Shown piece after piece: positions 33,812 to 53,229 of a stretch of DNA of 64,000 nt. The position numbers were made by a program, and so were the translations under genes. Origin of the DNA: an uncultured Gemmatimonadaceae bacterium (GTDB taxonomy: Bacteria; Gemmatimonadota; Gemmatimonadetes; Gemmatimonadales; Gemmatimonadaceae); contig CAWFQK010000004.1 in assembly GCA_963817955.1 (NCBI GenBank), forward strand, positions 1,344,001-1,408,000. Reading direction: 5' to 3'. The number at the start of each line of letters is the position of its first letter. The first letter of the stretch is position 1. The notes under the pieces are model-generated. The model made no database searches, was not told where the DNA came from, and saw only the letters and a list, made by a program, of their open reading frames with translations.

Positions 33812-33817
33812 CGTCGT

Positions 33818-34609: not shown

Positions 34610-34626
34610 CGAACGCTGAACTTGCC
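34604..34626 (+). other. attC left half (remainder lost)
   Basis: GTTTAAC-GAACGCTGAACTTG followed by unrelated sequence. Confidence 0.6.
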
Positions 34627-34662
34627 ACGCTGCGGATGGGCGGCTCACGACCATCACGACCA

Positions 34663-35092: not shown

Positions 35093-36248
35093 GTCCGGGA
35101 TCGCGGACGTTAGGTCGCTTGCACCGTCAGTTGCCTTGGATCGTAGCGTTCTCCTCGTTTCCACAGTCGTAACGTGATCGCCGCGAGCTTCCGCGCGAGC
35201 GTCACCCGCGCCAGTTCCTCTCGCATGCCGCGGCTGACCAATCCCTGATACCACTCCCGCAACGCGGCCGTGGCGGCACCTTTGAACACATCCTTCACCA
35301 CGCGGGAGCTAATGTCGAAAGGTGTGGAAATAGACGGAAGGCGGTGACACCTTCTCGGGTGAGCCAATCACCCCCGGGAGAATCCCGGCAACGAAAAGGA
35401 GCCACCGCCCATGAAGAAGATGAAGGATGAGCCAGCCACGTCAAGCGCGACGTGGGACACATTGGAATCCTTTGCCCGGATGCATGTCCAAGGATTCATT
35501 CAGCAGCTGTTGGAAGAAGAGGTGACCGAGCTGCTCGGTCGAGCGAAGTCCGCGCGCCGTGGCGCGGTGGATGCGCCGGCCGGGGCGCGCAACGGGCACG
35601 GGAAGCCGCGGACCCTCGCGCTCATGAATGGGACCATCGTGGTGCGCCGGCCACGGGTGCGCGACCTGGATGAGCTGTTCGTGAGCCGCCTGCTGCCGCT
35701 CTTTCAGCGGCGCACCAAGGAACTGAGCACGCTGTTGCCCGAGCTGTATTTGCATGGCCTCGCGCTCGGGGATTTCGAACTCGCGCTCCGCGGCCTGTTG
35801 GGCGACGGGGCGCCGCTGAGTGCGAGCTCGCTTGTGCGCCTCAAGGCGACGTGGCAGGCGGAGTATGCGGTGTGGCAGCGGCGCGACCTGAGCGCCCTCA
35901 AGCTGGTGTATCTCTGGGCGGACGGCGTGTATGTGAAAGCGGGGCTTGAGCATAGCAAGGCGGCGCTCCTGGTGTTGATCGGCGCCGACGCGGAGGGGCG
36001 GAAACACGTCCTCGCGGTGACCAGTGGCGAGCGGGAATCGGTGGTGAGCTGGACCGCCGTGCTCCGCGACCTGAAGGCGCGCGGGCTCTGCGCCCCCAAG
36101 CTCACGACCCCGGCGGCCACCCAAACTCCCCCACCTGTGGCCACCTCAAAATCCCCCACCCGCTGATGGGTAGCGGCGCCTAATCCGAGGCGCCGAAACG
36201 GCAGGACGTACACTCCTCCTCGACTCTTTTTCGGGGAGTAACCACGGA

Positions 36249-37841
36249 GTGAACGTCTTGAAACCGCATCGACGCATCATGGTCGAGACGCTGCTGGCCA
36301 GCGGCGCGACGCACCGAGAGATCGAACGACGCACGGGCGTGGATCGAAAGACGATCCGCCGGTACGCGCGGGGCCCGGCCCCCAATGCGTCAAACTCCCC
36401 CACCCCGGCCACCGGCTTTGACGAGGCGGTTGCGCAAACTCCTCCACCCCGGCCACCGGCTTTGGCGGAGCGAGACGTCGTCGCGCAGGCGACGGTCACG
36501 GCGCCGACGCCCCGATGGACGCCCTCCGCGTGCGAGCCCCATCGCGCGTGGCTCGAGACCCAAGTCCAACTCGGGCGCAACGCCGTGAGTCTCTACCAGG
36601 AGCTCGTGGACGAGCACGGGTTCACGCATCACTACAACTCCGTCAAACGGTTCGTTGCCACGCTGCGACGGCGCGAACCGGAGCGATTCGATGTCTTGGC
36701 GTACCTGCCCGGCGAGGAGGCCCAAGTCGACTACGGCCAAGGGGCGTTGACGCTGTGGAAGCCCGATCACTACAAGCGACCGTACCTGTTCGTGATGACG
36801 CTCAAGTATTCCGGGAAGAGCTTTCGCAAGGTCGTCTGGAAGACGAATCAAGAGATATGGGCGCGGTTACACGAGGAGGCCTTCCGCACGTTTGGCGGCT
36901 GCCCAGCGTACGTGGTATTAGACAACTTAAAAGAGGGCGTACTCCGACCCGACCTCTACGAGCCCGAGCTGAACCCGGTGTACGCGGCGATGCTCGCCCA
37001 CTATGGCGTCGTGGCGGATCCGTGCCGCGTGCGGGATCCCAATCGCAAAGGGACCGTCGAAAGCGCGATCCAGCACACCCAAGGCACGGCCCTCAAAGGG
37101 AAACGGTTCGCGGCGATCGACGCGCAGAACGTGTATCTCGCGACGTGGGAAGAGCGCTGGGCCGCGACGCGCATCCACGGCCGCAAGAAGCGGCAAGTGC
37201 TCGAGATGTATCGCGAGGAGCAGCCGCACCTTCGCGCGCTCCCGGCCATGCCCATGCAGTACTTCACGCAAGGCACCCGCACTGTCGACGATAGTGGGCT
37301 CGTGCAAGTCAGCGCGTCGTACTACTCGGCGTTACCGGCCGCGCCGACGAGCACGGTCACCGTCCGCCTCTACGCGCGCGAGATCGAGATCCTCGATGCC
37401 GCCGGCCAACTGCTCCGCCGACACGAGATCGCCCCGCGCAAGGGGACCTTCACGATGGACGAGACGGATCGGCTCTTCAATCCCTCGCGCGAGACGGCTC
37501 GCTTGCTGAACAAAGCCGCGCGGATCGGTCCCCACACCGCCGCCTTCGCGCAGCATCTCTTTGCCCATCTCGGCCGGCCGGGCCAACGCGCGCTGTACGG
37601 CCTGACCAATCTCGTCCGCACCTACTCGTGCGCCAACATCGACGCCGTCTGTGCGCGCCTGGTTGCGGCCGAGTGTGTCACCTATGCCGCCGTGAAGCGC
37701 GCCCTGGAACGCACGTGCGCCCCGGACGCGTCGCCCACCCGGCCCATGCTGACGCAGACCGGCCCGGCGATCCGCGCCATCGCTGAGTACCAGGACTTCT
37801 GGGATACGCATTCACACACTCTCCTGCCGGAGCCCCGCTGA
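36249..37841 (+). CDS. istA: IS21 transposase IstA
   Basis: PGEEAQVDYG, VVLDNLK, P.RKGTVE DDE motifs. Confidence 0.93.
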   Translation: MNVLKPHRRIMVETLLASGATHREIERRTGVDRKTIRRYARGPAPNASNSPTPATGFDEAVAQTPPPRPPALAERDVVAQATVTAPTPRWTPSACEPHRAWLETQVQLGRNAVSLYQELVDEHGFTHHYNSVKRFVATLRRREPERFDVLAYLPGEEAQVDYGQGALTLWKPDHYKRPYLFVMTLKYSGKSFRKVVWKTNQEIWARLHEEAFRTFGGCPAYVVLDNLKEGVLRPDLYEPELNPVYAAMLAHYGVVADPCRVRDPNRKGTVESAIQHTQGTALKGKRFAAIDAQNVYLATWEERWAATRIHGRKKRQVLEMYREEQPHLRALPAMPMQYFTQGTRTVDDSGLVQVSASYYSALPAAPTSTVTVRLYAREIEILDAAGQLLRRHEIAPRKGTFTMDETDRLFNPSRETARLLNKAARIGPHTAAFAQHLFAHLGRPGQRALYGLTNLVRTYSCANIDAVCARLVAAECVTYAAVKRALERTCAPDASPTRPMLTQTGPAIRAIAEYQDFWDTHSHTLLPEPR

Positions 37842-38608
37842 TGCCGATGTCCATCCCCGAGCTTGAACGCGCCCTCACCAATCTCCGCCTCTCCGGCATG
37901 ACGGCCACGCTGGAAGCCCGCGCGCTGCAAGTGGCCAGTCACGAGATGGGCTTTCTTGAGGCCTTCTCCTGGCTCGTGCAAGATGAACTCGACCGTCGTC
38001 GCTCCCGGCTGCTCGATCGGCGCCACACCCTCTCGGGACTCCCCGACCGCAAGGACCTCACGAGCTTCGACTGGACCTACAATCCGCGCCTCCCGAAACG
38101 CGACGTCCTCGACCTCGCGACGCTCAAGTTTCTTGACGCCAAGGAAGACGTGCTCGTCCTCGGTCCGCCCGGCACCGGCAAAAGTCACGTCGCCAAAGCG
38201 CTTGCCACCACCGCCGTTAGTCGAGGCTACAAGGTGCTCTATCGCGAAGCGCATCAGCTCATCGAAGACATCACCGAGGCGCGCGAGCTGGGAGAGATTC
38301 GGAAACTGCGTGCCCAGATCGCCGCCGCAGACCTACTCCTGGTCGACGATCTCTTTCTGCGCAAGCTCCCGACGACGGCCGGTGACGAACTCGCCGACGT
38401 CCTCATGGCTCGCCACGAAAAAGCGTCCACGATGATCACGTCCAACCGACCACTCGAGGACTGGACGCGACTCCTCGGGGATGTCGTCGTCGTCACCCCG
38501 CTCCTCGACCGCCTGATGCACCATGGCCATTTGCTCAAGTTTGATGGCAAGAGCTGGCGGCTGAAAGAGGCTGCCGCTCGGGCAGCCAAACAGAAGGCAG
38601 CGAACTAA
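37841..38608 (+). CDS. istB: IS21 helper ATPase IstB
   Basis: GPPGTGKSH, LLLVDD, ITSN, LLDRL.HH, G.SWR. Confidence 0.93.
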   Translation: MPMSIPELERALTNLRLSGMTATLEARALQVASHEMGFLEAFSWLVQDELDRRRSRLLDRRHTLSGLPDRKDLTSFDWTYNPRLPKRDVLDLATLKFLDAKEDVLVLGPPGTGKSHVAKALATTAVSRGYKVLYREAHQLIEDITEARELGEIRKLRAQIAAADLLLVDDLFLRKLPTTAGDELADVLMARHEKASTMITSNRPLEDWTRLLGDVVVVTPLLDRLMHHGHLLKFDGKSWRLKEAAARAAKQKAAN

Positions 38609-40265
38609 CTTCCCCTCGTCCTGCCGGCCATCAAGTGGAGGAGTTTGACCCGGCCACAGGTGGGGGAGTTTGAGGTGGCCACCGGGGCTCACGATCGCCG
38701 ATGGGCATCTCGGCCTCTGGGGCGCTCTCGCGGCAATCTATCCGACGAGTGCCGAGCAGCGGTGTTGGAATCACAAGCTGCGGAACGTGCTCGACCTGGT
38801 GCCGACGAAACGCCAAGCCGAAGTCACCGTGCAGCTCCAGCAGATCGCCGCGGCGGAGACACAGCGGGCGGCGGAGCGGCTGCGCGACGCGTTTGCCCGC
38901 ACGTACCGTCGCGTGGTGCCCAAAGCCGTCGAGTGCCTCGAGCGGGATTGGGACCGCCTGGTCGCGTACTACGCCTTTCCGCAGGAGCACTGGAAGCATC
39001 TGCGCACGACGAACGTGATCGAGTCTCCGTTTGCCGCGGTGCGGCTCCGCACGACCGCGGCGAAGCGCTTCAAGAAAGTGGAGAACGCCACGACGTTGAT
39101 CTGGAAGACCTTACTCGTCGTCGAACAACATTTCCGCAAACTGAACGCCCCGCACCGCTGCACCGACGTGTACGATGGCGCCGTATTTCACGACGGAATC
39201 TGCACCGTGACCCCGACCCGGGAACGGATCGCCGCCTGACGCCTATTTACACACCAATTGACAAGAGCTCTCACCCGGTTGTGATTGCGATTGAGGCCAC
39301 GCGTCTGCACATACCGCCGCCGGCGGCGCACCGGCCGCTGACCGTCGAGCTCGTACTCGGCACTGGTCCGGGTGACGACCGCGAGGCCCGCGTAGGCCCA
39401 GAGGTGGCGCTTCGTGCGGAAGCGCCAGGGCGTCTGCAGCGTCGCGAGGAGGAGCGCGACCCGCACCGGTCCGAGATACGGAATGCTGCGCAGCCCGGCC
39501 CACGCCGGATCTCGTTTCGCTTCCGCGAGCATCGCCGCCTTCGCCTTGGGGCGTAGCTGCTGCAGGACCGCGAGTTCGTCGTACAATGTCGCGGCCCGGA
39601 ACCGCACGCCCCGCTCCGCCAACTGCTGCAGCCACGTCCGGCGCCGAGCTGTTTGATAGACGGCGGTGCCGGGCGTCTTGATGCCGCGCGCCCGAAACAA
39701 CGCCTTGAGCCGTTGCATCACGCGCGTCGAGTCCTCGACGAGATTGGCATAGGTCCGCGCCAGCTCTTTGAGCGTGGCCCGATCGGCACTGCCATGATAG
39801 ACAGCCCGGAGCCGCCCAGAGCGCAGCAATTCCGACAACTCGTCGGCATCCGGCTGATCGCCCTTGTTGCCTTGCGGGGCTTGTCCGCGCCGGTTGCACA
39901 CGAGGACCCGGTCCACCACGGGCACGAGCAGATCGTGCAGCCACTGCGCCTGCGTGCCTTCCTCAAACGCGACGTGGACGGAGCCACGCATGCCGCGGAA
40001 CCAGTCCACGATCGGCGCGGCCTCCGTTGGCAAAATGGTCCGCGCGATCACGCGTCCCGTCTCCTCTCGCACCGTCGTCCCCGTAGTTGCCTGGTGCACA
40101 TCGAGCCCGACATACTTCAGCGTCCGTTTCATGAGAGCGCCTCCTGGCTGGGAGCTGTGGTTGCTCAACAACTCCACATGACCCGTCAGGGGCGCGCGCT
40201 CAATATCCGTTAGCTCGCCACCTAGTAACGCTTTACGTTATGGGCGGCCAGCGTTATTATTGCAG

Positions 40266-40653
40266 GTGATCAAGAGCTTCGCGAGTCGTGACACCGAGCG
40301 CCTCTTCCAGCGGGAGCGTGTGCGGCGCTTTCCGGCCGAGCTCATGCTCCGAAAGCTCGTGGTGCTCGACGCGGCGTCCCGGCGAAATCCTCGCCGCCGA
40401 TTTTCTTGAGCCGCTCGGCCTGTCACAGTATCGTCTGGCGAAGGACATCAGTGTGCCGGCGCGTCGGGTGAACGAGATCGTGCATGGAACGCGAGCAATC
40501 AGCGCTGACACCGCGCTTCGGCTCGCGCGGTACTTCGGCACAAGCGATCGCTTCTGGTTGAATCTGCAGGCTCGCTATGACCTTGAGGTGGAGCGCGATC
40601 ATCTCGGTGCTCGGCTGGAGAAGGAAGTTCGAGTCCTCGACCGGGCGAGCTAA
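40266..40653 (+). pseudogene. higBA cassette with an internal deletion (HigB N-terminus joined out of frame to start-less HigA)
   Basis: MIKSFASRDTERLF...RKL..LDAA stops at about 40376, then PGEIL..DFLEPLGLSQYRLAKDI...FWLNLQARYDL; R'' AGCTAAC at 40648. Confidence 0.85.
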
Positions 40654-40717
40654 CGTACGCCGCAGCCGAACGGCGCGCCGCTTGACCACCGCCAGCCGCC
40701 ATCGTACTCTCCAAATC

Positions 40718-40954
40718 ATGGTGGCTCCCAATTACCACGACCGCATTGTCAGCGATCCGAACGTCCGGTTTGGCAAGCCGGTCGTGCGCGGAACGCGCAT
40801 TTCCGTCGGAGATGTGCTCGGTTATCTCGCCGGGGGAATGACCGAACCCGACATTCTCACCGACTTTCCGCAACTCAGCCACGAGGACATCGTGGCCTGT
40901 CTCGCGTTCGCTGCCGACCGCGAGCGACGCCTGGCGACCGTACCGGGCCTCTGA
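40718..40954 (+). CDS. DUF433 antitoxin
   Basis: DP.VRFGKPVVRGTRISV; promoter-like TTGACC-17-TACTCT upstream. Confidence 0.88.
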   Translation: MVAPNYHDRIVSDPNVRFGKPVVRGTRISVGDVLGYLAGGMTEPDILTDFPQLSHEDIVACLAFAADRERRLATVPGL

Positions 40955-40978
40955 CATCGGCGTCGAGCCGTCTCACTC

Positions 40979-41311
40979 GTGAAACTGCTCTTCGACGAGA
41001 ACTTGTCAGGCCAGCTTCCGCGCCTGCTCGCTGATCTCTTTCCCGATTCAGATAGCGCCCTGCGCCTTGGGCTCGGTGGCGCCTCCGACGATGCAGTCTG
41101 GGAACACGCGAAACGCGCCGAGTTCGTTCTCGTCACGAAGGATGAAGACTTTCAACGCCTCAGTGTCTTGCGAGGCCCGCCGCCCAAGGTGATTTGGATT
41201 CGCCTCGGCAATTGTGCCACCGCCGATGTTGCACGAATGGTCCGCTTTCGGGTCGAGCAGATACACGTCTTTCTCACCGATTCGGAGGCCGCGTTCCTCG
41301 CACTCGGCTAA
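40979..41311 (+). CDS. DUF5615 PIN-like (VapC45-type) toxin
   Basis: MKLLFDENLS, SD..VW, VTKDEDF, PPKVIWIR.GN. Confidence 0.88.
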   Translation: MKLLFDENLSGQLPRLLADLFPDSDSALRLGLGGASDDAVWEHAKRAEFVLVTKDEDFQRLSVLRGPPPKVIWIRLGNCATADVARMVRFRVEQIHVFLTDSEAAFLALG

Positions 41312-41329
41312 CGAGCATCCCGGCGCCCC

Positions 41330-41427
41330 GCACAACGATCATTGCAGCAGACGGGCGAGCTATGGATGCAGCGGCTTCACCGCTGCATCCTAATGTGTTC
41401 GCCCGCAGCTGAATTCGAGCGTTCGCC
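41330..41427 (+). other. attC site
   Basis: GCACAAC...TTGCAGCAG...CAGCTGAA...GTTCGCC with a long central hairpin. Confidence 0.75.
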
Positions 41428-41478
41428 ACGCCACCAAAGTACGGTGTAAGTTGAAGAGGGCCTTCATCGGAGCGCCGC

Positions 41479-41703
41479 ATGCAGACCGATCAGCTTCCCA
41501 TTCATAGCGATCCCGAGATCATGGGCGGCACGCCCGTGTTCGTCGGTTCCCGCGTCCCCGTCCAGACGCTCCTCGATTATCTCGAAGCGGGCGATCCCCT
41601 CGACGAGTTTCTCGACAATTTTCCGAGCGTCTCGCGCGAGCAAGCCGTCGCGGTTCTCGAGCTCGCGAAGGATCTGCTGCTCGCGCGGGCCACGGCGGCG
41701 TGA
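41479..41703 (+). CDS. DUF433 antitoxin
   Basis: SDPEIMGGTPVFVGSRVPV. Confidence 0.88.
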   Translation: MQTDQLPIHSDPEIMGGTPVFVGSRVPVQTLLDYLEAGDPLDEFLDNFPSVSREQAVAVLELAKDLLLARATAA

Positions 41704-41910
41704 CCTCGGAGTCCGGCCTCGCTCGTCGCGTTCTGCTGGATGAATGTGTACCGCGGCTCCTCTTGCGCGAATGTCGCCGCCAGCGGCATCGCGGTGATCG
41801 TTCTTCACGCCCGATCAAATCGCGTTCCCGATTTGTCGCCGTTGTTACCCGCACTTCGAGAGCAGCTTGCGGGTGCCAAGGTCGGCACGGTCGCGCATGT
41901 GGGTGGCTAA
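41700..41910 (+). pseudogene. DUF5615 PIN-like toxin, internally deleted and frameshifted
   Basis: RVLLDECVPR N-terminus; C-terminus IAVIVLHARSNR..DL.PL lies in another frame and ends at the attC. Confidence 0.72.
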
Positions 41911-42004
41911 CGGTGCATGAAGCTGTCGAGCGGGCTATGGATTGCGCCGCCCGACGCGCGGCGCTTTTATCTGATCCGCTCGCAGCTTCTGCTCGGCGTT
42001 AGGC
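41905..42004 (+). other. attC site
   Basis: GGCTAAC...TGAAGCTG...CAGCTTCT...GTTAGGC. Confidence 0.88.
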
Positions 42005-42062
42005 CGCACCGGCACTTCTCTCTCGAGTTAGTAAGATCAGTGTCAAAGGGCTTCGAGGGCTC

Positions 42063-43361
42063 ATGCACCGACCATCCTTGATCTCCACGCTGGCAGCAGC
42101 CTTGATTGCCACCCCCACGCTGCTCGCGGCACAAGACGCCCTCGGTGCGTGGCAAGGAACCCTCGCGACACCGGCCAGACCGTTGCGTCTCGTCGTCGAC
42201 ATCGCGCGTGACAACGGTCGCGTGAAGGTCGTGCAGTTCAGCATCGACCAGGCGGGTTTCCAGACCCCAGTCACGGCCGACACGATAACGATCGCATCCC
42301 GCACGATCCGGATCGTCTTCAGTCGGGCTCGCACCACTTTCGATGGCACACTCAACCCACGCGCCGACACGATCACCGGCACCTGGACGCAATCCGGAAC
42401 ACCCCGGCCGCTCGTCTTGGCCCGAGCCGATGCGAAGACGGCGTGGCGCGATTCGTCAGCGCACTCGATTCGACAGGTTGCCGTCGACACGAGCGTCTCG
42501 ATCGAGGTGCTCGATTGGGGTGGAAGCGGACGACCGGTCGTCCTGCTTGCGGGCGCCGGCAATACGGCACATGTCTTCGACCAGTTCGCCACGAAGCTCG
42601 TCGGCCGCTACCACGTCTACGGAATAACACGACGCGGATTTGGACGCTCGAGCGCGCCGATGTCCGGCTACTCGGCCGACCGACTCGCCGACGACGTGCT
42701 CGCGGTACTCGATTCGCTGCATCTCGTGATGCCTGTACTCATCGGGCACTCGATCGCGGGCGAAGAGATGAGCTCAATCGGATCACGACACGCGGAGCGC
42801 GTGGCCGGGCTCGTGTATCTCGATGGTGGCTACGCCTACGCGTACTATGACTCGACCCAGCAGAACACGCTGATCAACCTGTACGACGTCCAGCGGAAGC
42901 TCGCTCACCTGTCACCGGCGCTCAGCCCGCGTGCTCTCGAGAGCCTCCTCAAGGAGCTACTCACGACGAGCCTCCCGCTCATGGAGCGCGATATGCGGGC
43001 GTGGTCACAGAGTCTCGCGATGCGCCCAGACCGCGATGTCACGCCGGCTCCGTTCGCACGGGACTTTGTCGCCGATTCGCTGTTCGCCGGCGAGCAGAAG
43101 TTCACGGCGATTCGTGGACCGGTGCTCGCGATCTTCGCCGCGCCGCGTGAGCCGTCGCCCGCATTGCTCAAGGACTCCGTGGCCCTCGCACGGTCAGATT
43201 CAACGTATCTCGCGGATGTGATGCCGCAGATCACGGCGTTCGAGCGCGGTACACCGGGCGCGCGCGTGATCCGCATCCCGCACTCCAATCACTACGTCTT
43301 CCGGTCGAACGAGGCGGAGGTATTGCGTGCGGTCTTCGCGTTCATCGATGGCCTTCGCTAA
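42063..43361 (+). CDS. Cassette: secreted alpha/beta hydrolase
   Basis: Signal peptide; TRRGFG.S, GHSIAG, VYLDG, HSNH motifs. Confidence 0.85.
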   Translation: MHRPSLISTLAAALIATPTLLAAQDALGAWQGTLATPARPLRLVVDIARDNGRVKVVQFSIDQAGFQTPVTADTITIASRTIRIVFSRARTTFDGTLNPRADTITGTWTQSGTPRPLVLARADAKTAWRDSSAHSIRQVAVDTSVSIEVLDWGGSGRPVVLLAGAGNTAHVFDQFATKLVGRYHVYGITRRGFGRSSAPMSGYSADRLADDVLAVLDSLHLVMPVLIGHSIAGEEMSSIGSRHAERVAGLVYLDGGYAYAYYDSTQQNTLINLYDVQRKLAHLSPALSPRALESLLKELLTTSLPLMERDMRAWSQSLAMRPDRDVTPAPFARDFVADSLFAGEQKFTAIRGPVLAIFAAPREPSPALLKDSVALARSDSTYLADVMPQITAFERGTPGARVIRIPHSNHYVFRSNEAEVLRAVFAFIDGLR

Positions 43362-43429
43362 TGCCTCGCAGCGATGAAGCGGCAATTGCTTCCCCCGAAG
43401 CATTCGCACGTAGTCGATCTCGACCTGCG

Positions 43430-43491
43430 GCCTAACGACCGTTGCTGCTGTCGAGCGGTCTGTCGGACTGCAGCTGCTCGCCTACGCTCGC
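43430..43491 (+). other. attC left half (right half deleted)
   Basis: TGCGGCCTAAC complements the cassette start GTTAGGCCGCA; runs to GCTCGCCTACGCTCGC. Confidence 0.65.
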
Positions 43492-43914
43492 CGACGCCGT
43501 TCTCGTTCACGGTGCTTGTCCGCGAGAACGCGATGCTCATTTATTGATGCGTCGTCCTGGCGCGCCACTGGCCAGCAACTGATTGCCTCCCGCGAGCTCC
43601 GTCCACCTCTGGACGGAGCTCTTCGTTTTCCGGCAAGGCGCCGACTATTGCGGAGACGGTGATGCCACATAGCATCTGGCACGAGCATTTGCTTCTGGGG
43701 ACAGTCGATTTGCCGCGTGGCCAATTTGTCGCCGGTCGCCCTCGTCGGGCCGCCGGATACCCTTCGTTGCCGAGGTGGTGAAACGATCAACAGTCGCGTT
43801 TCTCCATCTTGGGCTGTTCTACCGGGATTCCACCGGCCACACACTGCAGCCCGGCGCCGACCAGTGGTGACCGCACCCCCGACTACACCGCCGATGTTGT
43901 CCGGTGCGCCTGCC

Positions 43915-43946
43915 GTATAACGAACGCTGCAGCTGGGGCGTCAAGC
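43915..43946 (+). other. Collapsed 32-bp attC
   Basis: GTATAAC-GAACGCTGCAGCTGGGGC-GTCAAGC. Confidence 0.7.
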
Positions 43947-44195
43947 GGCAGCATCGATTCGCGTTGAGGCAAGAAGATGCGTGTCGACAACGGGCGCTCA
44001 CCGCCCTGGTCAGCCAGATTCCCAGAGACGGAGTTTCGAGCCGCGATCAAGAACGTCTCATCGGCTCGGTGACGGCTTCGGAAGGTCGATGGCGTCGCAT
44101 GCCACGACCACGGATTGAGCTGCCCGTCGGTGAGGCGTAGAGGCCGGCTACCTAACCGGTTGCCTCGCGACGGCCATCGAGCCAACTTCAGGCAC

Positions 44196-44438
44196 ATGCC
44201 CACGGTGCTCGGCGTTGGCCCGTATCGCTTCTTCTTCTACGCGAGTGATCGGCCAGAACCGGCGCACATTCATGTGGAGCGCGACGCCTTTCGATCCAAA
44301 TTCTGGTTGGACCCGGTTCGCCTTGAACGAAGCGGTGGCTTCAATCGCTCGGAGCTGGCTCGGATCACGAGCCTGGTCATCGAGCATCGAGATACCCTGC
44401 TGAGGAGCTGGCATGACTTCTTCCGCGAGAACGATTGA
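44196..44438 (+). CDS. DUF4160 protein
   Basis: MPTVL..GPYRFFFY..D..EP.HIHVE.D....KFWL. Confidence 0.85.
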   Translation: MPTVLGVGPYRFFFYASDRPEPAHIHVERDAFRSKFWLDPVRLERSGGFNRSELARITSLVIEHRDTLLRSWHDFFREND

Positions 44439-44736
44439 CTCCGAGGAGCACCGACCGGAGCCGCTCGCGACCAGCGCCACGGTCACGGACGACTCACTCG
44501 TCGTAGAATTGAGCGACGGGCGGACGATCTCGGTTCCACTCGCGTGGTACCCACGACTGCTCCACGGATCGCCCACCGAGCGGGCGCATTGGCGGTTGAT
44601 CGGCGGTGGTGAGGGAATCCACTGGGCCGACCTGGATGAAGACATCAGCGTGGAAGGTCTCCTTGCGGGTCGACCCTCCGGCGAGAGTCAGCGATCTCTC
44701 AAGCAATGGCTCACGTCGCGCGGGGCTGCCGCTTAA
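44413..44736 (+). CDS. DUF2442 protein
   Basis: L.VELSDGRTISVPLAWYPRL...GIHW.DLDEDISVEGLL. Confidence 0.85.
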   Translation: MTSSARTIDSEEHRPEPLATSATVTDDSLVVELSDGRTISVPLAWYPRLLHGSPTERAHWRLIGGGEGIHWADLDEDISVEGLLAGRPSGESQRSLKQWLTSRGAAA

Positions 44737-44822
44737 CGAACGCTGCACCTGACGGTCGAGCTTCGGATGGCGCGCGCTTCGCGCGCGCTTCTATTTGGCC
44801 CGCCCGCAGGTGAGTTATGGCC
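44731..44822 (+). other. attC site (degenerate right end)
   Basis: GCTTAAC...CTGCACCTG...CAGGTGAG-TTATGGCC. Confidence 0.7.
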
Positions 44823-45062
44823 AGCACACGGTCAACGATGTACGGAGCGATCGCAGGCATTCCGGGCGCCACCGCCCTTGCCCCTACCCCACTCTCCGGC
44901 CAAGCGCGAGCGCAGACGGATAGTGCGCAGCCACGGCGGGTGGTACACGTTTATGCGACTTGAGGCCGACTCAGGCCGTCGTGGTTTGTATGAACGGTGC
45001 AGGTCACGTGCCTTTTGGACAGCTTTAGCGAGAGCTCGAACCTAAGTGTCGAGAGCGCAATC

Positions 45063-45515
45063 ATGAGCCGGACGCTTTTCCTGATCGCACTGGCGATCGT
45101 ATTCATCGTCCTCGCACCGCTGCAGACCGCTCTGGTGCTCGGTATCGCCGCGGTGGTGATCCTGGTCGGGGGGTACGTCGCCGTCGCCGCGCTGACCGCG
45201 GCCCTCATGTTGCCCCTATTCATTGCCGGGAGCACTGGCGTTCGCGCGCCGGTTCTGGCGGCAAGCATCGTGGCGGCCGCAATCGTGTTCTCCATCCATC
45301 GCGCGAGCATTCGCCGACTGCGCACCGGGCAGGAACCTCGACTCGGCCGCTTCGGAAACGCACCACTGGCGCCGGGCGAGCGACCAGGCGTCGGGCTGTG
45401 GGCCAAGCCGGCGCCGCACGGGCTTCTTGGGCGAAGCGCGATGAGCGCCGGTGCGGCTCTGGTGATCATCGCTGCACTCGCCATCAGCGTCGTGGTGGCG
45501 GCGCGCTTCGGCTGA
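45063..45515 (+). CDS. Cassette: membrane protein resembling the C-terminal half of PlsY
   Basis: GYVAVAALTAA and IHRASIRRLRTGQEPRL resemble the PlsY motifs RYVSLAS and RHxxNIxRLxxGxE. Confidence 0.5.
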   Translation: MSRTLFLIALAIVFIVLAPLQTALVLGIAAVVILVGGYVAVAALTAALMLPLFIAGSTGVRAPVLAASIVAAAIVFSIHRASIRRLRTGQEPRLGRFGNAPLAPGERPGVGLWAKPAPHGLLGRSAMSAGAALVIIAALAISVVVAARFG

Positions 45516-45589
45516 TGTACGACCGGGAGAAGAACGACTCGTTTGGATACCACGACGGCGATCCGACCGTAGAGATCACGGCCCGTGCT

Positions 45590-45688
45590 GGCTAACGAAC
45601 GCTGAAGCCGACGGGCGACTTATTGATTTATGATGCCTGCGGCATCACTCTTATCTGACTCGCCCGCAGCTTAGCTCGGGCGTTATAC
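45590..45688 (+). other. attC site
   Basis: GGCTAAC...CTGAAGCCG...CAGCTTAG...GTTATAC. Confidence 0.9.
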
Positions 45689-45825
45689 GGCGCCCCGTCT
45701 ACCGAGCGAACGAAATGAATCCGAGTGTCATCCTGCTTGGTTTCATAATTCCGATCAGCGTTTTGGTCTGGTTAGATCGGCGCCTCCGGCGCGAGCCCCC
45801 CTCGACAACGGCGAGCTAAGATCCC

Positions 45826-46328
45826 GTGTACGTAGGCCACTTCGCCCTCGCGCTCGCCGTGAAGGGTCGGCGCCCAAAGTTACCGCTCGCGACATGTTTG
45901 ATTGCGGCGACAGCACCCGATCTAGCAATGGCGATCATGGGCATATTTGCCAACAGCACAACTGCCGACGCCTACTCGCACTCGCTGATCGCGGTCGTCG
46001 CGCTCGCGCTAATCGGTGGAATGCTCGCGTGGAGTTGTCAGCTAGGTACGGGGGGAGCGCTCTGGATTAGCGCGTTGGTTGCGAGTCATCTTCCGGCGGA
46101 TTGGGTGACCAGCCGTCTCGCGCTGTGGCCGCACGGCCCCGTCTGGGGGCCGGACTGTACGCGCATCCTGGCATCGATCTGGTCCTTGAAGGCGTGCTCG
46201 CGATCGGCGGATGGGCGATCTATCGTCGAGGACTTCCGCGAGCCATGGCCATGCGTGCGCTGGCATGGGCGCCGCTTGGCGTTCTGCTAGCCTTGCAGGC
46301 CGTTTGGGATATCATGAGCTGGCACTGA
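45826..46328 (+). pseudogene. Cassette: membrane-bound metal-dependent hydrolase-like protein, frameshifted near 46145
   Basis: GH, PD, SHSL, SH..AD motifs; continues as G.GLY...LE in another frame. Confidence 0.65.
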
Positions 46329-46359
46329 GTCTCAGGCCGCTCCGCCCGCGCCGTATAAC

Positions 46360-47025
46360 GAGGATGTAGGAAAACCCTAATTGGCTGGCGAGCCGACCGC
46401 GCCGCGTCGTCGATGCGCGGCGGCGGAACTGGTCAGGCGTGTGGCGGCGGAATGCCGGTGACGACCGTGTTTCGGCGCGTTGTACCCCTCGGAACGGTGC
46501 CCCGCACCTACGCCGCGTACCCGTAGTGTGCGAGTTTCTCGATGTTGTGCACGAGACAGAACAGCTTCCATTGCGTCTCGACTTTGCGGCGGCCGCGCAG
46601 GGTGAAGCGATCGAGCCCTTTGTTGTAGCACAGTTTGCCGAACACCGGTTCCACGGCGCCGATGCGTTCCGCATACCGCCGCCGCCCCTCCGGCGAATCA
46701 ATGCGCCGTTTCATGCGGGCGGTGTGCGACTCGGGCAGCGGGGCCGTCTTGCCCTGGAAGAACATGACGGAGCGCACCTTCGTGGTCGACGGCGTCTCGA
46801 GACACCGGGCGCGCAGGACGCACGGGCCACAGTCGCGTTGCTTCCCCTGAAAGCGCGTCCAGATGTTGTCGCGATTCACCCACTGGGCGCCGCTCCGGTT
46901 GAGCACCTTGCCCGCCGGGCAGATGCACGTCCGCGCCTCGGCGTCGTACGTGCAGGCACTCGCCGGAAACACGGCGGCTGCCTGCACCGGAGCAGGATCC
47001 GCCTTGTCGTGCAGCGGATTGTGGA
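46360..47025 (-). mobile_element. IS1182-family element, truncated copy (3' part only)
   Basis: IR GAGGATGTAGGAAAA directly after attC R'' GTATAAC; C-terminal CPAG, C..C.LR..C, VEPVFG, RF.LRG, HNI.KL. Confidence 0.85.
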
Positions 47026-47170
47026 TGATCGAGCGGGGGCTGGCGGGGCTGGCGCAAGCGATCGGGACGACGGGTGACTGTGATCAGTCATCAGTGCGTG
47101 GGTCCTCAGTCCTCAGTGACGGAGGACCCCGACAGCCCTCGATCGGGCGAACAGACCCACGACCATCCAC
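47023..47170. repeat. Second copy of the 22516-22664 repeat
   Basis: About 148-bp near-identical direct copy. Confidence 0.8.
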
Positions 47171-47497
47171 GCCAGGCGACACCGCGATCCGTTTCTACTG
47201 CCACTCACGATGTTCGCGGTGGTGTTCGTGGCAGCCGGCCTCGGCAAGGCAGCGACGGGCGCCGGCATCCTCAACCTGGACCTGATAGCGGGCGTCCTGG
47301 CGAGCGTCGGCTTCGCCCCCGCTCTGGATGCGGGCTTCGGCGGCGATGCGGGCCTCAGCGCCGAACGGGACACGTCCAGAGGTCTAGACGGTGTTCGTGC
47401 GGAGTGTGGGCGTTGGGCCCGCGCTGTCCAACCTACGCTGCCCGTTGACGGCAGCCAGCCGAGCGGAGACCTTACTGGTAAGACTTCAGGAGATCCC

Positions 47498-47761
47498 ATG
47501 AGCGAGGCTGCAACCACGACTCTGTCTTCCAAGGGTCAGGTCGTGATTCCCGAAGAAATCCGAGCGCGGCTCGGCTTGAAGACCGGCGCGCAGTTCGTCG
47601 TCGTCGCCGACCGAGACGTCGTGATCTTCAAGGTCCTTGATCCGCCCAGCCTGAGTGAGTTTGCCCCCCTTGTGACCCATGCTCGGCGCGTCGCAAAGGC
47701 CGCTGGTCTGCGGCAGGCGGATGTTGGCAAGGCCCTCGCCAAGGTTCGCCGGTCGCGGTGA
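47498..47761 (+). CDS. AbrB/MazE/SpoVT family antitoxin
   Basis: LSSKGQVVIPEEIRARLGL; palindrome CTTACTGGTAAG upstream. Confidence 0.88.
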   Translation: MSEAATTTLSSKGQVVIPEEIRARLGLKTGAQFVVVADRDVVIFKVLDPPSLSEFAPLVTHARRVAKAAGLRQADVGKALAKVRRSR

Positions 47762-48174
47762 AGGTTATTCTCGATACGAACGTCGTTGTTTCTGGCGTCT
47801 TCTTCGGTGGCGTGCCGGGACGGATCCTGGACGCGTGGGCCGCAGGCCGTCTGGCGCTGGTTCTGTCGCCCGAGATCCTCGCTGAATACCAACGCGTCGG
47901 CGCTGAACTGGGAGCACAGCATCCGGAAGTCACCGAGGCGTGGGAGCCGATTCTCGCGCACATCACGATACATGCAACGATCGTTGACGCGCCGCCGCTT
48001 TCTGAGCCCGTGAGCGACGATCCGGCAGATGACATGTTTCTTGCCGCCGCACTCGCGGCGCGCACTCATGTGATCGTCTCGGGGGATAAACACCTATTGC
48101 GAGTTTCTGGATGGCGCGACATCGTGGTATACACGCCGCGACAATTCTACGCGCAGCATCTCGCCACCGGTTGA
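47758..48174 (+). CDS. PIN-domain (VapC-type) toxin
   Basis: MKVILDTNVVVS, DP.DD.FL..A, IVSGDKHLL. Confidence 0.9.
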   Translation: MKVILDTNVVVSGVFFGGVPGRILDAWAAGRLALVLSPEILAEYQRVGAELGAQHPEVTEAWEPILAHITIHATIVDAPPLSEPVSDDPADDMFLAAALAARTHVIVSGDKHLLRVSGWRDIVVYTPRQFYAQHLATG

Positions 48175-48182
48175 CAGCTAAC

Positions 48183-49802
48183 GAGGATGTAGGAAAACCC
48201 TAATTGGCTGGCGAGCCGACCGCGCCGCGTCGTCGATGCGCGGCGGCGGCGGAACTGGTCTGGCGTGCGGCGGCGGAATGCCGGTGACGACCGTGTTTCG
48301 GCGCGTTGTACCCCTCGGAACGGTGCCCCGCACCGACGCCGCGTACCCGTAGTGTGCGAGTTTCTCGATGTTGTGCACGAGACAGAACAGCTTCCACTGC
48401 GTCTCGACTTTGCGGCGGCCGCGCAGGGTGAAGCGATCGAGCCCTTTGTTGTGGCATATATTGCCGAACACCGGTTCCACGGCGCCGAAGCGTTTCGCAT
48501 ACCGCCGCCGCCCCTCCGGCGAATCAATGCGCCGTTTCATGCGGGCGGTGTGCGACTCGGGCAGCGGGGCCGTCTTGCCCTGGAAGAACATGACGGAGCG
48601 CACCTTCGTGGTCGACGGCGTCTCGAGACACCGGGCGCGCAGGACGCACGGGCCACAGTCGCGTTGCTTCCCCTGAAAGCGCGTCCAGATGTTGTCGCGA
48701 TTCACCCACTGGGCGCCGCTCCGGTTGAGCACCTTGCCCGCCGGGCAGATGCACGTCCGCGCCTCGGCGTCGTACGTGCAGGCACTCGCCGGAAACACGG
48801 CGGCTGCCTACACCGGAGCAGGATTCGCCTTGTCGTGCAGCGGATTGTGGAAGGCTTTGTGGTGATCCTGCGTGGCGAAGCGCTCATCTCGGCGGCGCAT
48901 GTCGTTGTCCGCGATGAGCGCGTCGACCGACATCGCGGCGAGTTGCTGCACGTTCGCGTCGCTGTGGTAGCCTGCATCGGCCGTGATCAATGACTCCGCC
49001 GTGAGCAGTCCTTGCATTGCCGCGACGAAGGGATTCTGCTGGAGCCACTCCCGGACCTGCGCCGCATCGTTCTCCAGGCGCTCGACGCGTTGCTTCTCCT
49101 TCTCCAGCAGCGTCGGCTCCGCCGACAGCTGATCCGCTGCGCGATGGCGCGCGAGGATCGTCTGCGCGGCAGCTTCGAGCTTCGTCGCCTGTCGCTCGAA
49201 GTCGGCGCGCGTCCCGCTCCGTCGCTTCGCCGCGTTGCTGGGGAACTTCACCCCATCGATGGCGAACAGCTCGCGACCGATCAGTCCCTCGGCATCGCAG
49301 GTCGCCACCACGGCCGCGAACACGCGAGCGATGTCATCGCCCACCGTGCTCACGAAGTGCGCGATCGTGGTGAAATGCGGGGCCGTGTCGCCTGAGAGCG
49401 ATGAACGTGACCTGCTCGCGACAGGCGCGCTCGATGCCCCGGCTGCTGATGATCCCATGGGCGTAGGCGACGAGCACGACCTTGAGGAGCATCGCCGGTG
49501 GATACGCGGGCGCGCCGGTGTCGTCGTTCTGGAATCGCTCATCGAAGCGTGGGAGGTCGATCGCGTGATCCAGCAGGTGATTGACCGCGTGTTCGAACGT
49601 GCCCGGAAGCAGTTGGCGCGCGAGATCAATGGCCAAGAACTTCGGATTGGTGTCGATGTACTTGTAGCGAGCCATGGCAGGACACCGGAGGAGGGTCAAC
49701 CGCGATGTGCACAGCGCTCCACGCCCGACGCTTCTTCAACCCGCCAGTTGCTTCGCGAGTCACCTCACCACAGACTCTATCGCAGGCTTTTTCTACAGCC
49801 TC
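48183..49802 (-). mobile_element. IS1182-family element with both ends; transposase is a pseudogene
   Basis: IRs GAGGATGTAGGAAAA/TTTTTCTACAGCCTC with 3-bp DR AAC. The ORF from 49675 has a frameshift near 49395, an apparent internal deletion and a TAG at 48808 (CAG in the other copy). Confidence 0.88.
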
Positions 49803-49896
49803 AACGAGCGCTGAACTTGACAAAGGGGCCATTGAATACGCTCGCTGCGCGAGCGTTCTTATATGATCCCTTTGCAGGTTAGCTCAAGCGTTATGC
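49803..49896 (+). other. attC (remainder after IS1182 insertion; original R'' AGCTAAC at 48176-48182)
   Basis: AACGAGCGCTGAACTTG...CAGGTTAG...GTTATGC. Confidence 0.85.
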
Positions 49897-49917
49897 TGAA
49901 TCCTTCCCTCCGCTGCT

Positions 49918-50673
49918 ATGACAGTCGGTAGCCAACTCGACCTACGCCACTTCGCGCTGAGTGTTCTCGCATGCGATGCACCAGATGCGACACCTACGCA
50001 GATCTGCGGAACGGCCTTTGCGATAGGAGGCGGCTATTTTGTCACAGCCGCGCACGTGCTTGACACCGTGCTCGAGTCACGCGCTCCCTCTCTTGGCTTT
50101 CTACCAGATCAAGCCCCGCTCGGACCAGTAGCATACTACCAGGCTCCGATCACCCGGCATGAGATCGTGCGAGGCCTTGACCTCGGAATTATCGCGTGTG
50201 CTGGTGGACCCTACGGCACTTTTCAGTGGTTCGGCAGAGATGTTGCCCTCCTGACAAACGTCTTGGCTGGCGGCTATCCGTACGCGCTCGAGCGCGATCG
50301 TTTGCAAGTGTTTGTTCGCGCCTATCGTGGTTCCATCGCCTCAGCGCATCAGATATATCAGCTTCCCGACGAGCCTGGCGGATACGAACTTTCATTTCCG
50401 GCGCCGCGAGGGTTGTCCGGGGCACCGCTGCTACTTCAGCAAATGCCGCCAATTGTGGTCGGCTATATCGTAGAGAATGGCCGCTCTGGCATGCTGGTCA
50501 TGAGCCATCGTGAATCGATTGCTGAATCGTCCTCGGAGACGGTTGTTGAGCAGTATGAGTACCTGACTTACGGGATTGCCGTGAGCTCAAGTGCAGTGGT
50601 AGAGGTTCAGAGTGAGCTGCTGGGCGGGACGATCAAAGATCACTTGAAGCGTCACAACCTATTCATAGATTGA
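49918..50673 (+). CDS. Cassette: trypsin-like serine protease
   Basis: GTAF, VTAAHV, DLGII, GYP, GLSGAP catalytic triad motifs; no signal peptide. Confidence 0.82.
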   Translation: MTVGSQLDLRHFALSVLACDAPDATPTQICGTAFAIGGGYFVTAAHVLDTVLESRAPSLGFLPDQAPLGPVAYYQAPITRHEIVRGLDLGIIACAGGPYGTFQWFGRDVALLTNVLAGGYPYALERDRLQVFVRAYRGSIASAHQIYQLPDEPGGYELSFPAPRGLSGAPLLLQQMPPIVVGYIVENGRSGMLVMSHRESIAESSSETVVEQYEYLTYGIAVSSSAVVEVQSELLGGTIKDHLKRHNLFID

Positions 50674-50690
50674 TTTCGATCCGCGATGCA

Positions 50691-50780
50691 GCATAACGTG
50701 CGTTGCACCAGCCGGGCGAGCTTTGGTAGCTCGCTGCGCTCGCATTTTGTTTGATTCGCCCCCAGGTAAACTCGGGCGTT
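50691..50780 (+). other. attC site (R' split by IS110-B)
   Basis: GCATAAC...CAGGTAAA-CTCGGGCGTT|IS|AGACC. Confidence 0.85.
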
Positions 50781-50849
50781 GATATGACTGGGCTGGTGTC
50801 AAACGCTTAGTTCATTCGACGGTCACTGCGTTGGTAGTTGTGATGTAAG

Positions 50850-51070
50850 TGGATCGTGGAACGACGGGGGGCCGAGGCAGCATCGACGATGAATCCTGCT
50901 GATATGCGCCGGTTGCCGCGACGCGGCAGAGCGGCAAGAATTGGATTCGTCGGGAGCTGGCTCATTCTAGGCTCGGGGATCCCGCTATCACATGGAACGC
51001 ACGGGCCGCCATAACGCCGTCGAGAGTACTCGCACATCGAGCCTCGGCACCGCACGTCGGACCACGATCA
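50850..51070 (-). ncRNA. Putative bridge/seek RNA of IS110-B
   Basis: Minus strand carries CGGCGTTA and GCCTA (attC core flanks), then CATATCAG (own circle junction); boundaries approximate. Confidence 0.6.
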
Positions 51071-51076
51071 CCTGGG

Positions 51077-52226
51077 TCATGCCGCTTGCACCGGCTCGAG
51101 CTCGCGCATCACGGCCCACAGGAAGCCGACGAGTTCGCGCGCCACGGCCACGACGGCGATCTGTGGGCGCTTCCGATAGCTCAGATGATTGTATCGTTGG
51201 TGCAGCCGCTGCTGCGCTTTCCAGGCGTGGGTGAGCACCGCGGGCGGTAGCCCTTGCTGTCGCCGCTTGAGATCGACGCTGATCTGCGGACGATGCCGAT
51301 AGCTCCACGCCGCCTGCACGAGCACATGGCGGCAATGACTGTTGGCCGCCGTCGTGATCGAACCAAGCCGCACCTGATTGCCACTCGAGTCTTCGCGTGA
51401 GACGAGCCCGAGGTAGCAGGCGAGTTGGCGCGGATGCTCGAACCGCCGCCAGCCGACGAACTCCGTGGCCTGCACCATAGCGGAGTACACCGAGATGCCG
51501 CGGAAGCACTGCAACTGCCTCACCATCGGGACGAGCGTTGGGAGTTCGGCGAGCCGCTCGATCTGTCGATCCAACTCCTCGCGCCGCTGCAGCTTGTACA
51601 GCAACAACGCGTGGAACTCTCGATAGATGAGCCGGTCATCCGAGGCGAGCGGCGACCCGTCCGTCGTGAGGTGCTGGAGCCATTGGAGGTGCGGCGTGCA
51701 CCAATTGGTGCCCTCGGGAAACACAAAGCCGCGACGCGCGAGGAACTTGAGGATGTAGTGCCGCGACTTGAGGATCTCGCGTTGAAAGATCTCACGACAG
51801 CGGACGACATCACGGACGCGCTCCTCAGCTTCACTGGGGATGCGCACGGGGACCAGCTCGCCCGCGCGATAGAGTCGCGCCAGGTCTGCGGCATCGCGCT
51901 TGTCATGTTTCCGTTGGACCCCGGGCCGCTTGGGAATCAGCGAGGGCGCGATCACGTCACACGCGTAGCCCCACTCGCGGAGCGCACGATGCAGCACGTA
52001 GCCCGTGCCACTCGCTGGCGTAACAGGCGCGCAGATCGCCGGCCCGGGCTGTCCGTGCCAGCCATTTCTTGAGGACCGGCAAGTCGTTGGTCAGCTTCTC
52101 GAGCCGGGTCGGCGTTGTCGCCGCCGCGGGTAAGACCGCGATGGTGATCGAGTCCTTGTGCACATCCATCCCGAGATGGATGATAGAGGGAGCAGCAGGC
52201 AGCACGACCGAAGGCAGTGATGACAT
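51077..52226 (-). pseudogene. IS110 DEDD recombinase, frameshifted near 52017
   Basis: GMDVHK, CY-(frameshift, E lost)-ASG.GY, KHDKRDA, EDSSG, VAVAREL. Confidence 0.85.
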
Positions 52227-52364
52227 GGGTTGGTCGCCGTGTACGACACGTCGGATCGTCGCAGGTGGCTCTGGGAACTCCGTCTCAACGCGTGAGGAAC
52301 TAATCCACGCTAAGATCGGAGGCCAGCCAGTCATAACTTCTAGACCAACAGAACAGATTCTCCC

Positions 52365-52973
52365 ATGTCTCAGCAGCGCTGTTCCCGGTGCGGAGCCGAT
52401 GTCACGACGCGCGAGCTCCCCGGTTTGGGAGTGCGCGAAGTGCTCGTCGATCGTCCTCGTGTGCTCCACCTGTGCACCGGCACCCCCGGATCATCGCGTC
52501 CGGGGGGTAGGTTAGCGCCCGCGTCAGTCGCCCAGCTCGGTGAACCAAAGGGCATCTCCACGCCCGCCAATTCCGATCCCACAGTTCGCAGGCCAGTGGC
52601 AAAGCAGTGCCGGGAGTGTGGCTACCCCATACTCCTGGTCTGGGACAAGACACGTGACTGCTACATGCCCGTGGATCAGGCCACGCGCCAGCCCCATTCT
52701 TGCCGCGCGAGTGATCTAACCAGAAGTGCCGTTGACTGCCCGACATGCGGAGCGCGGGTGAATTCGATGTTTCATCGTGCATCCGGGAAACGTCGCCTCT
52801 TCACCCCGGATGATAGTACGAAGCTGCATCACTGCATCCCGCCCGAGATCGCCGTTCGTCGAAGCGGCGGCGGCAGCCGGTTGGGGTCAGCGGACGGACT
52901 GCAGTCGTATCAGCGTCCTTCCTCCATCGACTGCACGTGTGAGGGCAGCGGTTGCGCCTCGTGCCGCCGATAG
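52365..52973 (+). CDS. Cassette: Cys/His-rich multi-zinc-ribbon hypothetical protein
   Basis: Three CxxCG...HxC units plus C-terminal CxCxxxxCxxC. Confidence 0.6.
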   Translation: MSQQRCSRCGADVTTRELPGLGVREVLVDRPRVLHLCTGTPGSSRPGGRLAPASVAQLGEPKGISTPANSDPTVRRPVAKQCRECGYPILLVWDKTRDCYMPVDQATRQPHSCRASDLTRSAVDCPTCGARVNSMFHRASGKRRLFTPDDSTKLHHCIPPEIAVRRSGGGSRLGSADGLQSYQRPSSIDCTCEGSGCASCRR

Positions 52974-52985
52974 CGTGGCGAGGTG

Positions 52986-53075
52986 GTCTAACGAGCGCTG
53001 AACTTGTCGAGCGATCTATGGAAGCTCGCTGCGCTCGCAGCTTATTGAATTCGCTCGCAAGTTAGCTTTGGCGTT
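52986..53075 (+). other. attC site (R' split by IS110-A)
   Basis: GTCTAAC...CTGAACTTG...CAAGTTAG-CTTTGGCGTT|IS|AGCC. Confidence 0.88.
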
Positions 53076-53229
53076 CTATGAGAGTGATTGTCAAGAGCGC
53101 TCTTCGTGCCGGCTGATCGTTTCACCTTTTTCTTCTTGGCAATCAGCCCCGACTCTTTCCTGGCGCGCGAGACCTTCCGCCGGGCAGTCTGCTTTGGCAT
53201 CGTTGTCCTCCCCGTCACTCCAAGGGTTC

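Follow-up and report, generated by a model that had tools for sequence, protein, structure and literature searches.

We describe an insertion sequence (IS) that has entered the cassette array of an integron in an uncultured Gemmatimonadaceae bacterium, within a 64,000-nucleotide stretch of its genome that we refer to as the window. The window holds two decayed copies of the element, and we put at roughly 85% the probability that they belong to a deep, cross-phylum clade of IS1182-family elements whose insertions go specifically to the conserved core of integron attC sites. The element joins its target after the C of 5′-(G)CCTAAC|G-3′ and has 3-bp AAC flanks (GTT on the other strand). The first-pass annotation of the window had proposed that a DDE-type IS1182-family element selects attC and ends up inside cassettes; across three samples of relatives we find such elements inside cassettes or at their edges.

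Two IS copies interrupt attC sites of one array

Both copies open with GAGGATGTAGG immediately 3′ of the TAAC of an attC R″ box, and when copy 1 is aligned with copy 2, identity begins at exactly the G of GAGGATGTAGGAAAACCC. This agrees with the first-pass annotation, which had placed both starts directly after TAAC, in the same orientation and in different cassettes. Copy 2, which was then called complete, does have both inverted ends (GAGGATGTAGGAAAACCC against the reverse complement GAGGCTGTAGAAAAAGCC, with 15 of 18 positions matching), but it is not intact. Compared by tblastn with P0001, an intact 520-amino-acid homologue that is 87% identical over the C-terminal piece of the window transposase, it has a frameshift near 49394-49401 and has lost ~63 codons (P0001 residues 228-290); a third defect is a TAG at 48808-48810, a codon that reads CAG in copy 1. 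Copy 1 retains only its B end, the one beside the 3′ end of the transposase gene, and codons ~351-519 of P0001 (tblastn). The place of its missing part is taken by a dispersed repeat of ~150 bp, at the start of which copy 1 breaks. This repeat contains an internal inverted repeat, recurs in the window at 22516-22664 and elsewhere on contigs C1, C2, and C4, with more than 20 further matches (75-98% identity), and is possibly a miniature transposable element.

Copy 2 terminates in ...GGCTTTTTCTACAGCCTC, followed by a second AAC and then by the remainder of the attC; in uninterrupted attC sites AAC is present once only. The earlier suggestion that, AAC being duplicated, a near-complete attC (CCTCAAC...GTTATGC) is regenerated behind copy 2 is borne out by R1, a covariance model built from five window attC sites, with those at the copy junctions not among them. 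R1 matches the regenerated site at full length (68.9 bits, E 9e-19, model positions 1-94), a score equal to that of the untouched neighbor at 50691-50784. No attC remainder was detected by R1 behind copy 1.

Two further remnants of the element, 92 nt and 14 nt long, lie on contig C1 inside another attC cluster, directly 3′ of GGCTAAC or GAGCTAAC and in the same orientation as the window copies. The genome has therefore received four independent insertions, each at the identical base of the R″ box, and because all four remnants are truncated or carry disabling mutations, the element is extinct in this genome. TAACG occurs 2000 times on both strands of the 4.53-Mb genome, with 28 occurrences within 24 attC matches, and 12 of 341 CTAACG words (3.5%) lie within attC matches; since TAACG is so rarely inside attC, and since two more remnants are placed in the same way, chance is excluded as the source of the coincidence.

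The open reading frame (ORF) pieces of copy 2 match Pfam families DUF772 (PF05598), DDE_Tnp_1 (PF01609), and DDE_Tnp_1_6 (PF13751), which places them among DDE transposases, and homologues show the same DUF772 plus DDE_Tnp_1_6 make-up. P0001 scores 277.8 bits on NF033551, the NCBI model for the IS1182 family (cut-off 270), and the broken pieces in the window give partial matches of 101 and 57.8 bits. Several homologues carry the name IS1182-family transposase in their source records, and the terminal inverted repeats of the element are kept across 66 loci.

The interrupted sites belong to an array of attC sites beside an integron integrase gene (intI). They show the structure expected of attC, in which R″ (RYYYAAC), R′ (GTTRRRY), and L boxes are joined by extrahelical bases on the R″-L″ arm, and in the window they read ...YTAAC GAACGCTGAAGCTGAC ... 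GCAGCTT.GCT.GGGC GTTRRRY. Five window sites share a fold of the canonical kind, in which an unpaired spacer separates the R box from the L box and the 5′ arm has two extrahelical bases (bulges at columns 15 and 22); the consensus counts 21 pairs, and 8 of these show compensatory changes. About a dozen attC sites, weaker ones included, are found by R1 in the window, all on the forward strand in agreement with ORF direction, and its strand discrimination is good (for example, 103 versus 21 bits at one site).

Relatives in many phyla abut attC

Relatives were gathered in three samples. Sample A comprises 80 reference-genome loci (80 of 583 tblastn candidates), one genome per species, picked by transposase similarity only and spanning Gemmatimonadota, Beta- and Gammaproteobacteria, Myxococcota, Chloroflexota, Planctomycetota, Actinomycetota, and others. 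Sample B comes from an NF033551 search of 151 genomes of the window's phylum, which gave 30 loci, one of which, from an unpublished genome, was excluded. Sample C holds 79 metagenome loci found with P0001, for which 80 of 436 tblastn candidates were returned. Within the window's order, a C-terminal query matched 2 of 60 genomes besides its own, and a plasmid collection yielded only three distant relatives. Flanks were scored with R2, a covariance model made from 28 attC sites without contact to the element; R1 was too narrow for betaproteobacterial attC, and R2 performs better, yet some are still missed. Two simpler finders were dropped. One demanded complementary R″ and R′ and returned zero sites, a rule that is wrong because the R′ tail belongs to the next cassette; the other, a hairpin-plus-bulge rule, was replaced by the covariance models.

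In sample A, both element ends were located in 66 loci, and of 55 unique sites whose flanks were long enough, 52 show AAC to the left and to the right. The logo of the empty site is GCCTAAC|G, its information concentrated almost entirely at −5 to +1, and this target consensus is the integron core, 1-2 nt from the integrase crossover. The 63 sample C loci with both junctions divide into 53 AAC/AAC, 7 GTT/GTT, and 3 mixed; over samples A and C together, AAC/AAC or GTT/GTT flanks are present in 112 of 118 loci with both junctions read.

Collecting homologues and scoring their flanks with attC covariance models, as the first-pass annotation had recommended, gives 42 loci in sample A and 41 in sample C that abut attC. 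In 40 of the 80 sample A loci, a full-length R2 match starts exactly 4 nt inside the B end and lies on the strand opposite the transposase gene (39 of 64 where at least 100 nt of flank are available at that end), and two more loci have a same-strand attC ending 4 nt inside the A end. Sample C repeats the pattern, with the B end at offset −4 in 34 loci, the A end at +4 in 6, and an offset of 0 in 1, and over both samples the offset is ±4 in 82 of 83 abutting loci. In sample A it is the attC R′ box that stands at this edge of the R2 match, and the element therefore sits in R′, as ...C GTT|element|GTT RRRY-next cassette. An ORF-based test of the site, which uses no attC model, assigned 33 of 48 sample A loci to R′ and 2 to R″, with 13 undecided. 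Other attC matches in the sample A flanks are on the same strand and at cassette spacing. Among five genomes checked, four have an intI above the family cut-off, and in three it lies 2.5-14 kb from the element, contig correspondence being read from record numbering.

Every abutting R2 match takes the element's four terminal bases into the R box, where GTT plus GAGG is close to GTTRRRY and CCTC plus AAC is close to RYYYAAC. The termini (GAGG.../...CCTC) and the duplicated AAC rebuild the R box, and the attC model therefore still reads a complete site.

Sample B separates the clade from the rest of its family. All six loci that are 61-72% identical to P0001 have GAGGNTGTAG ends and junctions of the form ...[CT][TC]AAC| on one side and, reverse-complemented, |...CGTT on the other, and an abutting attC is present in all four of these with enough flank. 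The other IS1182-family elements of the phylum are recognized by the same NF033551 model but are distant (20-38% identical or unalignable) and carry other inverted ends (e.g., CTAGGAGTCTG...), and 0 of 23 such loci have an abutting attC. Relatives on Pseudoalteromonas secondary replicons (42% identity) read ...CGTT|element|GTTA..., followed by a start codon.

Two loci have composite structures. At L176, from a metagenome, a second copy stands directly after the AAC that follows the B end of the first, a tandem insertion at the regenerated AAC|G. At L125 (111-1918), GTT flanks one side and AAC the other, and the attC interior faces outward on both sides (model − and +), an arrangement expected from inversion between two copies.

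Insertion arm and orientation differ by lineage

In the main group of relatives the insertion is at R′, where the element separates an attC from the cassette that follows, and the transposase gene runs antisense to the cassettes. The sublineage of the window is likewise antisense but occupies R″; it lies there between the gene of a cassette and that cassette's attC, which puts it within the cassette. The R″ site given in the first-pass annotation thus holds for the window and its sublineage, but in the clade at large insertion is usually at the R′ core. Sample C loci L125-L128, L131, and L150, the closest relatives (75-91% identical to P0001), have attC at the A end, its interior facing the gene's 5′ end with R″ at the match edge, and so share the arrangement of the window copies. 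A smaller sublineage (L056, L062, L070, the Pseudoalteromonas copies, L051, and L089) is inserted at R′ in sense orientation, and G002, a relative in the same genus as the window, is at R″ in sense orientation.

On a quick tree of the transposases (84 rows, support values unfinished, used for orientation clustering only), orientation requires 4 changes against a mean of 7.8 when shuffled, and none of 500 shuffles needed so few. In an alignment read by eye, uninterrupted attC sites of the Gemmatimonadota-like type (n = 18) have TAACG at R″ in ~13 of 18 and at R′ in ~13 of 18.

How the site may be recognized

We propose that the transposase itself would capture the target, by reading the core sequence together with asymmetric features of the attC arm, whether neighboring bases or DNA structure; recognition of this kind would explain why arm and orientation are fixed in each lineage. 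The 3-bp repeat would be the duplication left by a staggered cut. That the core word is read is clear. By itself, however, it leaves the pattern unexplained, because few CTAACG or TAACG words lie in attC, and because both arms carry TAACG and yet lineages use one arm and one orientation. In the R′ lineages the conserved G is followed by a pyrimidine (43 of 55), and in the R″ sublineage by a purine (GAACGCTG-type spacer); since this base differs between the arms used, an extended asymmetric sequence could be enough. Hairpin recognition may serve as well, and the sequences are compatible with either. A model in which integration into a cruciform or hairpin stem accounts for the polarity shared by R′ and R″ was dropped, being hard to reconcile with simple two-strand integration.

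Several points weigh against site-specific insertion into attC as we have described it. There are 23 loci among the 64 in sample A without an abutting R2 match; judged by eye, ~11 are attC-like betaproteobacterial types missed by the model, 3 are reverse-oriented, ~3 are unclear, and ~6 (L041, L043, L058, L064, L068, and L072) look like non-attC CTAAC|G sites, which means that the core sequence can be enough by itself. With AAC present in every target, a real 3-bp duplication is indistinguishable from an AAC borne by the element, and the three mismatched junction pairs of sample A all deviate on the outer side. All copies in this genome are dead, and the targeting is deduced from sequence comparison. 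Selection against insertions in genes could inflate the share of attC. The discarded hairpin rule discriminates poorly (passed by 35 of 51 element sites and also by 109 of 1500 random TAACG), the relatives are not independent, with several loci sharing one genome, and the tree is a quick search in which 17 of 84 rows are mis-extracted ORFs on a very long branch.

The alternative that deserves most attention is that the element merely prefers (C)TAAC|G, and that attC is over-represented among survivors as harmless intergenic sites, in-gene insertions having been purged. The non-attC CTAAC|G sites in sample A (~6 of 64 loci), the second copy of L176 at an AAC|G from the first copy's junction, and a logo that is strong only at −5 to +1 all fit such a preference. 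We nonetheless consider it unlikely, for in the window's genome the share of CTAACG within attC matches is 3.5% (12 of 341), as against at least 64% of informative loci that abut attC at a fixed offset; moreover, TAACG is about equally common at R″ and R′, and survival bias predicts neither the single arm nor the single orientation used per lineage. The first-pass annotation would have been undone by insertions mostly at generic TAAC sites; most loci instead abut full-length attC in arrays, several near intI.

Two other explanations carry far less weight. The integron integrase might move the element as a pseudo-cassette, with a circle junction CCTC-GTT-GAGG recombining at G|TT to leave GTT on both sides, and it is true that the flanking triplet is the integron core and that the GTT|GAGG junctions are close to GTTRRRY. 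But some insertions are at R″ (the window; L125-L128, L131, and L150), a box left uncut by the integrase, both orientations are found, as are non-attC CTAAC|G sites, the AAC in abutted ends would probably be looped and unpaired, unlike an R box, and the element has its own DDE transposase, so we regard movement by the integrase as very improbable. That the two window copies derive from one insertion by local duplication, a possibility raised at first pass and suggested by their spacing (1.8 kb), shared orientation, and 98% identity, we count as refuted and assign a negligible probability: identity starts exactly at the element end, the cassettes upstream are unrelated (YdjM-like versus MazE/PIN), and two more remnants follow other TAAC boxes on contig C1.

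Beyond site-specific insertion into the attC core, we entertain as a tentative and rather doubtful extension that the clade has evolved to ride on integrons, its R-box mimicry keeping attC recombinogenic, so that the integrase could excise, shuffle, and export it, and its transposase reading attC as an object with arm and polarity and not as a mere 6-bp word. The element would then be the leading part of the next cassette in the R′ lineages, or an internal part of a cassette in the window's R″ lineage. If true, this would be the first DDE transposase with integron-specific, orientation-specific targeting.

The integron of the window

Coordinates of the features are collected in Table 1. The intI gene, whose end (30562) precedes the first attC (31725), is transcribed in the same direction as the cassettes and not in the usual divergent layout; we take this to be an "inverted integrase" arrangement.

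Table 1. Features of the integron and of the IS copies, in window coordinates
Feature	Position	Strand	Remarks
intI, integron integrase gene	29624..30562	+	TIGR02249, 414.6 bits (cut-off 265)
Cassette array	31725..53079 at least	+	R1 matches of 44-103 bits
attC sites in array, first part	31725-31819, 33467-33559, 41330-41427, 41905-42004	+	R1
attC sites in array, second part	44731-44825, 45590-45688, 49799-49896, 50691-50784, 52986-53079	+	R1
YdjM-like cassette ORF	45826-46290		Pfam YdjM, E 3.5e-6, under its gathering score
R″ box GTATAAC, target of copy 1	46353..46359	+	attC of the YdjM-like cassette
IS copy 1	46360..47025	-	~666 nt, 98% identity to copy 2
Dispersed repeat, ~150 bp, in place of the rest of copy 1	47023..47170	.	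blastn against the genome; repeat family D15
GTTGGGC, possible R′ remnant (interrupted attC) and beginning of the following cassette	47411..47417	+	Suggested by sequence; no model match
Toxin-antitoxin cassette	47498..48174	+	MazE/AbrB-type antitoxin 47498-47761 (PF04014), PIN toxin 47758-48174 (PF13470)
R″ box AGCTAAC, target of copy 2	48176..48182	+	attC of the toxin-antitoxin cassette, 2 nt past the stop codon
IS copy 2	48183..49802	-	Both inverted ends; transposase gene broken
AAC duplication	left 48180-48182, right 49803..49805	+	Sequence
Regenerated attC	49799..49896	+	CCTC (last 4 nt of copy 2) + AAC + original attC; R′ GTTATGC 49890-49896

Between intI and the first attC, where attI would be expected, lies a composite repeat (30799-31364) rich in AGAGAACTGCA / TGCAGTTCTCT units; similar repeats are at 4101-4711, 8741-9214, and 13053-13307. 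Two 32-nt mini attC-like sites at 34018-34049 and 43915-43946 (GTATAAC GAACGCTG.AGCTG.GGCGT.AAGC; 89% alike, 23 and 19 bits on R1) look like attC with the center lost. Stretches in the middle of the array are duplicated just beyond its last strong attC with 97-99% identity (39272-39571 / 53684-53983 and 35090-35270 / 53457-53637), which suggests duplicated cassettes or rearrangement. Tandem repeats near the end of the window (21 nt × 7 units at 62843-63010; 42 nt × 3 units at 63839-63996) are probably coding repeats. Elsewhere in the genome there are five more attC clusters, at C4:480-490 kb, C4:720-725 kb, C3:122-125 kb, C3:177-191 kb, and C1:50-53 kb, and the cluster at C3:122-125 kb adjoins a partial integrase-like match (C3:120673-121065).

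Comparison with known attC-targeting elements

Two kinds of attC-homing element were known before, and a literature search agrees with the first-pass annotation that attC targeting is described for IS1111 elements and group IIC introns and not for IS1182. IS1111-attC elements are not known to leave a target duplication. They form a monophyletic subset of the IS110/IS1111 family (ISPa21, ISPst6, and ISKpn4) found at one end of attC and antisense to the cassettes, with a DEDD transposase that is now known to be guided by a seeker RNA (PMC3001079, PMC11187229). The element described here resembles them in standing at one end of attC, antisense to the cassettes, but unlike them it combines a transposase of the DDE type (IS5/IS1182) with terminal inverted repeats and a flanking repeat of 3 bp, and its ORFs match DDE families only, with neither DEDD_Tnp_IS110 nor Transposase_20 among them. 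It is a member of the IS1182 family that functions like the IS1111-attC group without belonging to it. The window also contains an IS110/IS1111-family element (50781-52337, − strand; ORF 51077-51997 with Transposase_20 and partial DEDD_Tnp_IS110), which begins at the GTT of R′ of the attC at 50691-50784, antisense, and has the ends GTTGATATGACTGGGCTGG ... CCAGCCAGTCATAAC. Its end (cccagtcatatcaac) is met again at L011, L014, L041, L049, L053, and L109, where it borders the IS1182-type element on the outside and the two attC-seeking elements stand back to back.

Group IIC-attC introns (e.g., S.ma.I2) lie antisense to the cassettes, inserted in the attC bottom strand, where they separate a gene from its attC (PMC3001079), a placement shared by the window element. 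These introns are retroelements with a ribozyme and a reverse transcriptase, whereas the ORFs of the window element encode a DDE transposase; no Rfam family, group II ribozymes included, reaches its gathering score in 29000-56000, and no reverse-transcriptase domain was found among the window ORFs scanned with Pfam.

Within the element's own family, IS1272 of Staphylococcus is reported to target inverted-repeat (hairpin-forming) sequences without target duplication, in an "inverted-repeat-replacing" mode (PMC5678879). IS1272 and the window element share an IS family, but the targets of IS1272 are not attC, and the window element hits a single base position in the integron core and is flanked by AAC at either end. 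No IS1182-type attC-specific element is reported in the literature searched, a body that leaves ISfinder and TnPedia notes outside it. In a 2024 survey, 49% of cassette-associated transposases are assigned to IS5-type families, and targeting is cited only for the IS1111 group (PMC11089894), as it is in a 2025 Xanthomonas study (PMC12444791).

Significance for integrons

Our results point to a third, apparently undescribed kind of attC-homing mobile element, with ~160 relatives in many phyla. Integrons are the main gene-capture platforms of bacteria, and this third kind is widespread and DDE-based, and hits the core 1-2 nt from the crossover yet rebuilds it. Because transposase "cassettes" are common, the annotation of cassette arrays would change, and such elements would explain in part how arrays decay and are rearranged into attC clusters that lack an integrase. 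They would also offer a natural system in which to study site- and orientation-specific insertion by a cut-and-paste transposase. If the rebuilt sites still recombine, the element belongs to the cassette and could move along with it.

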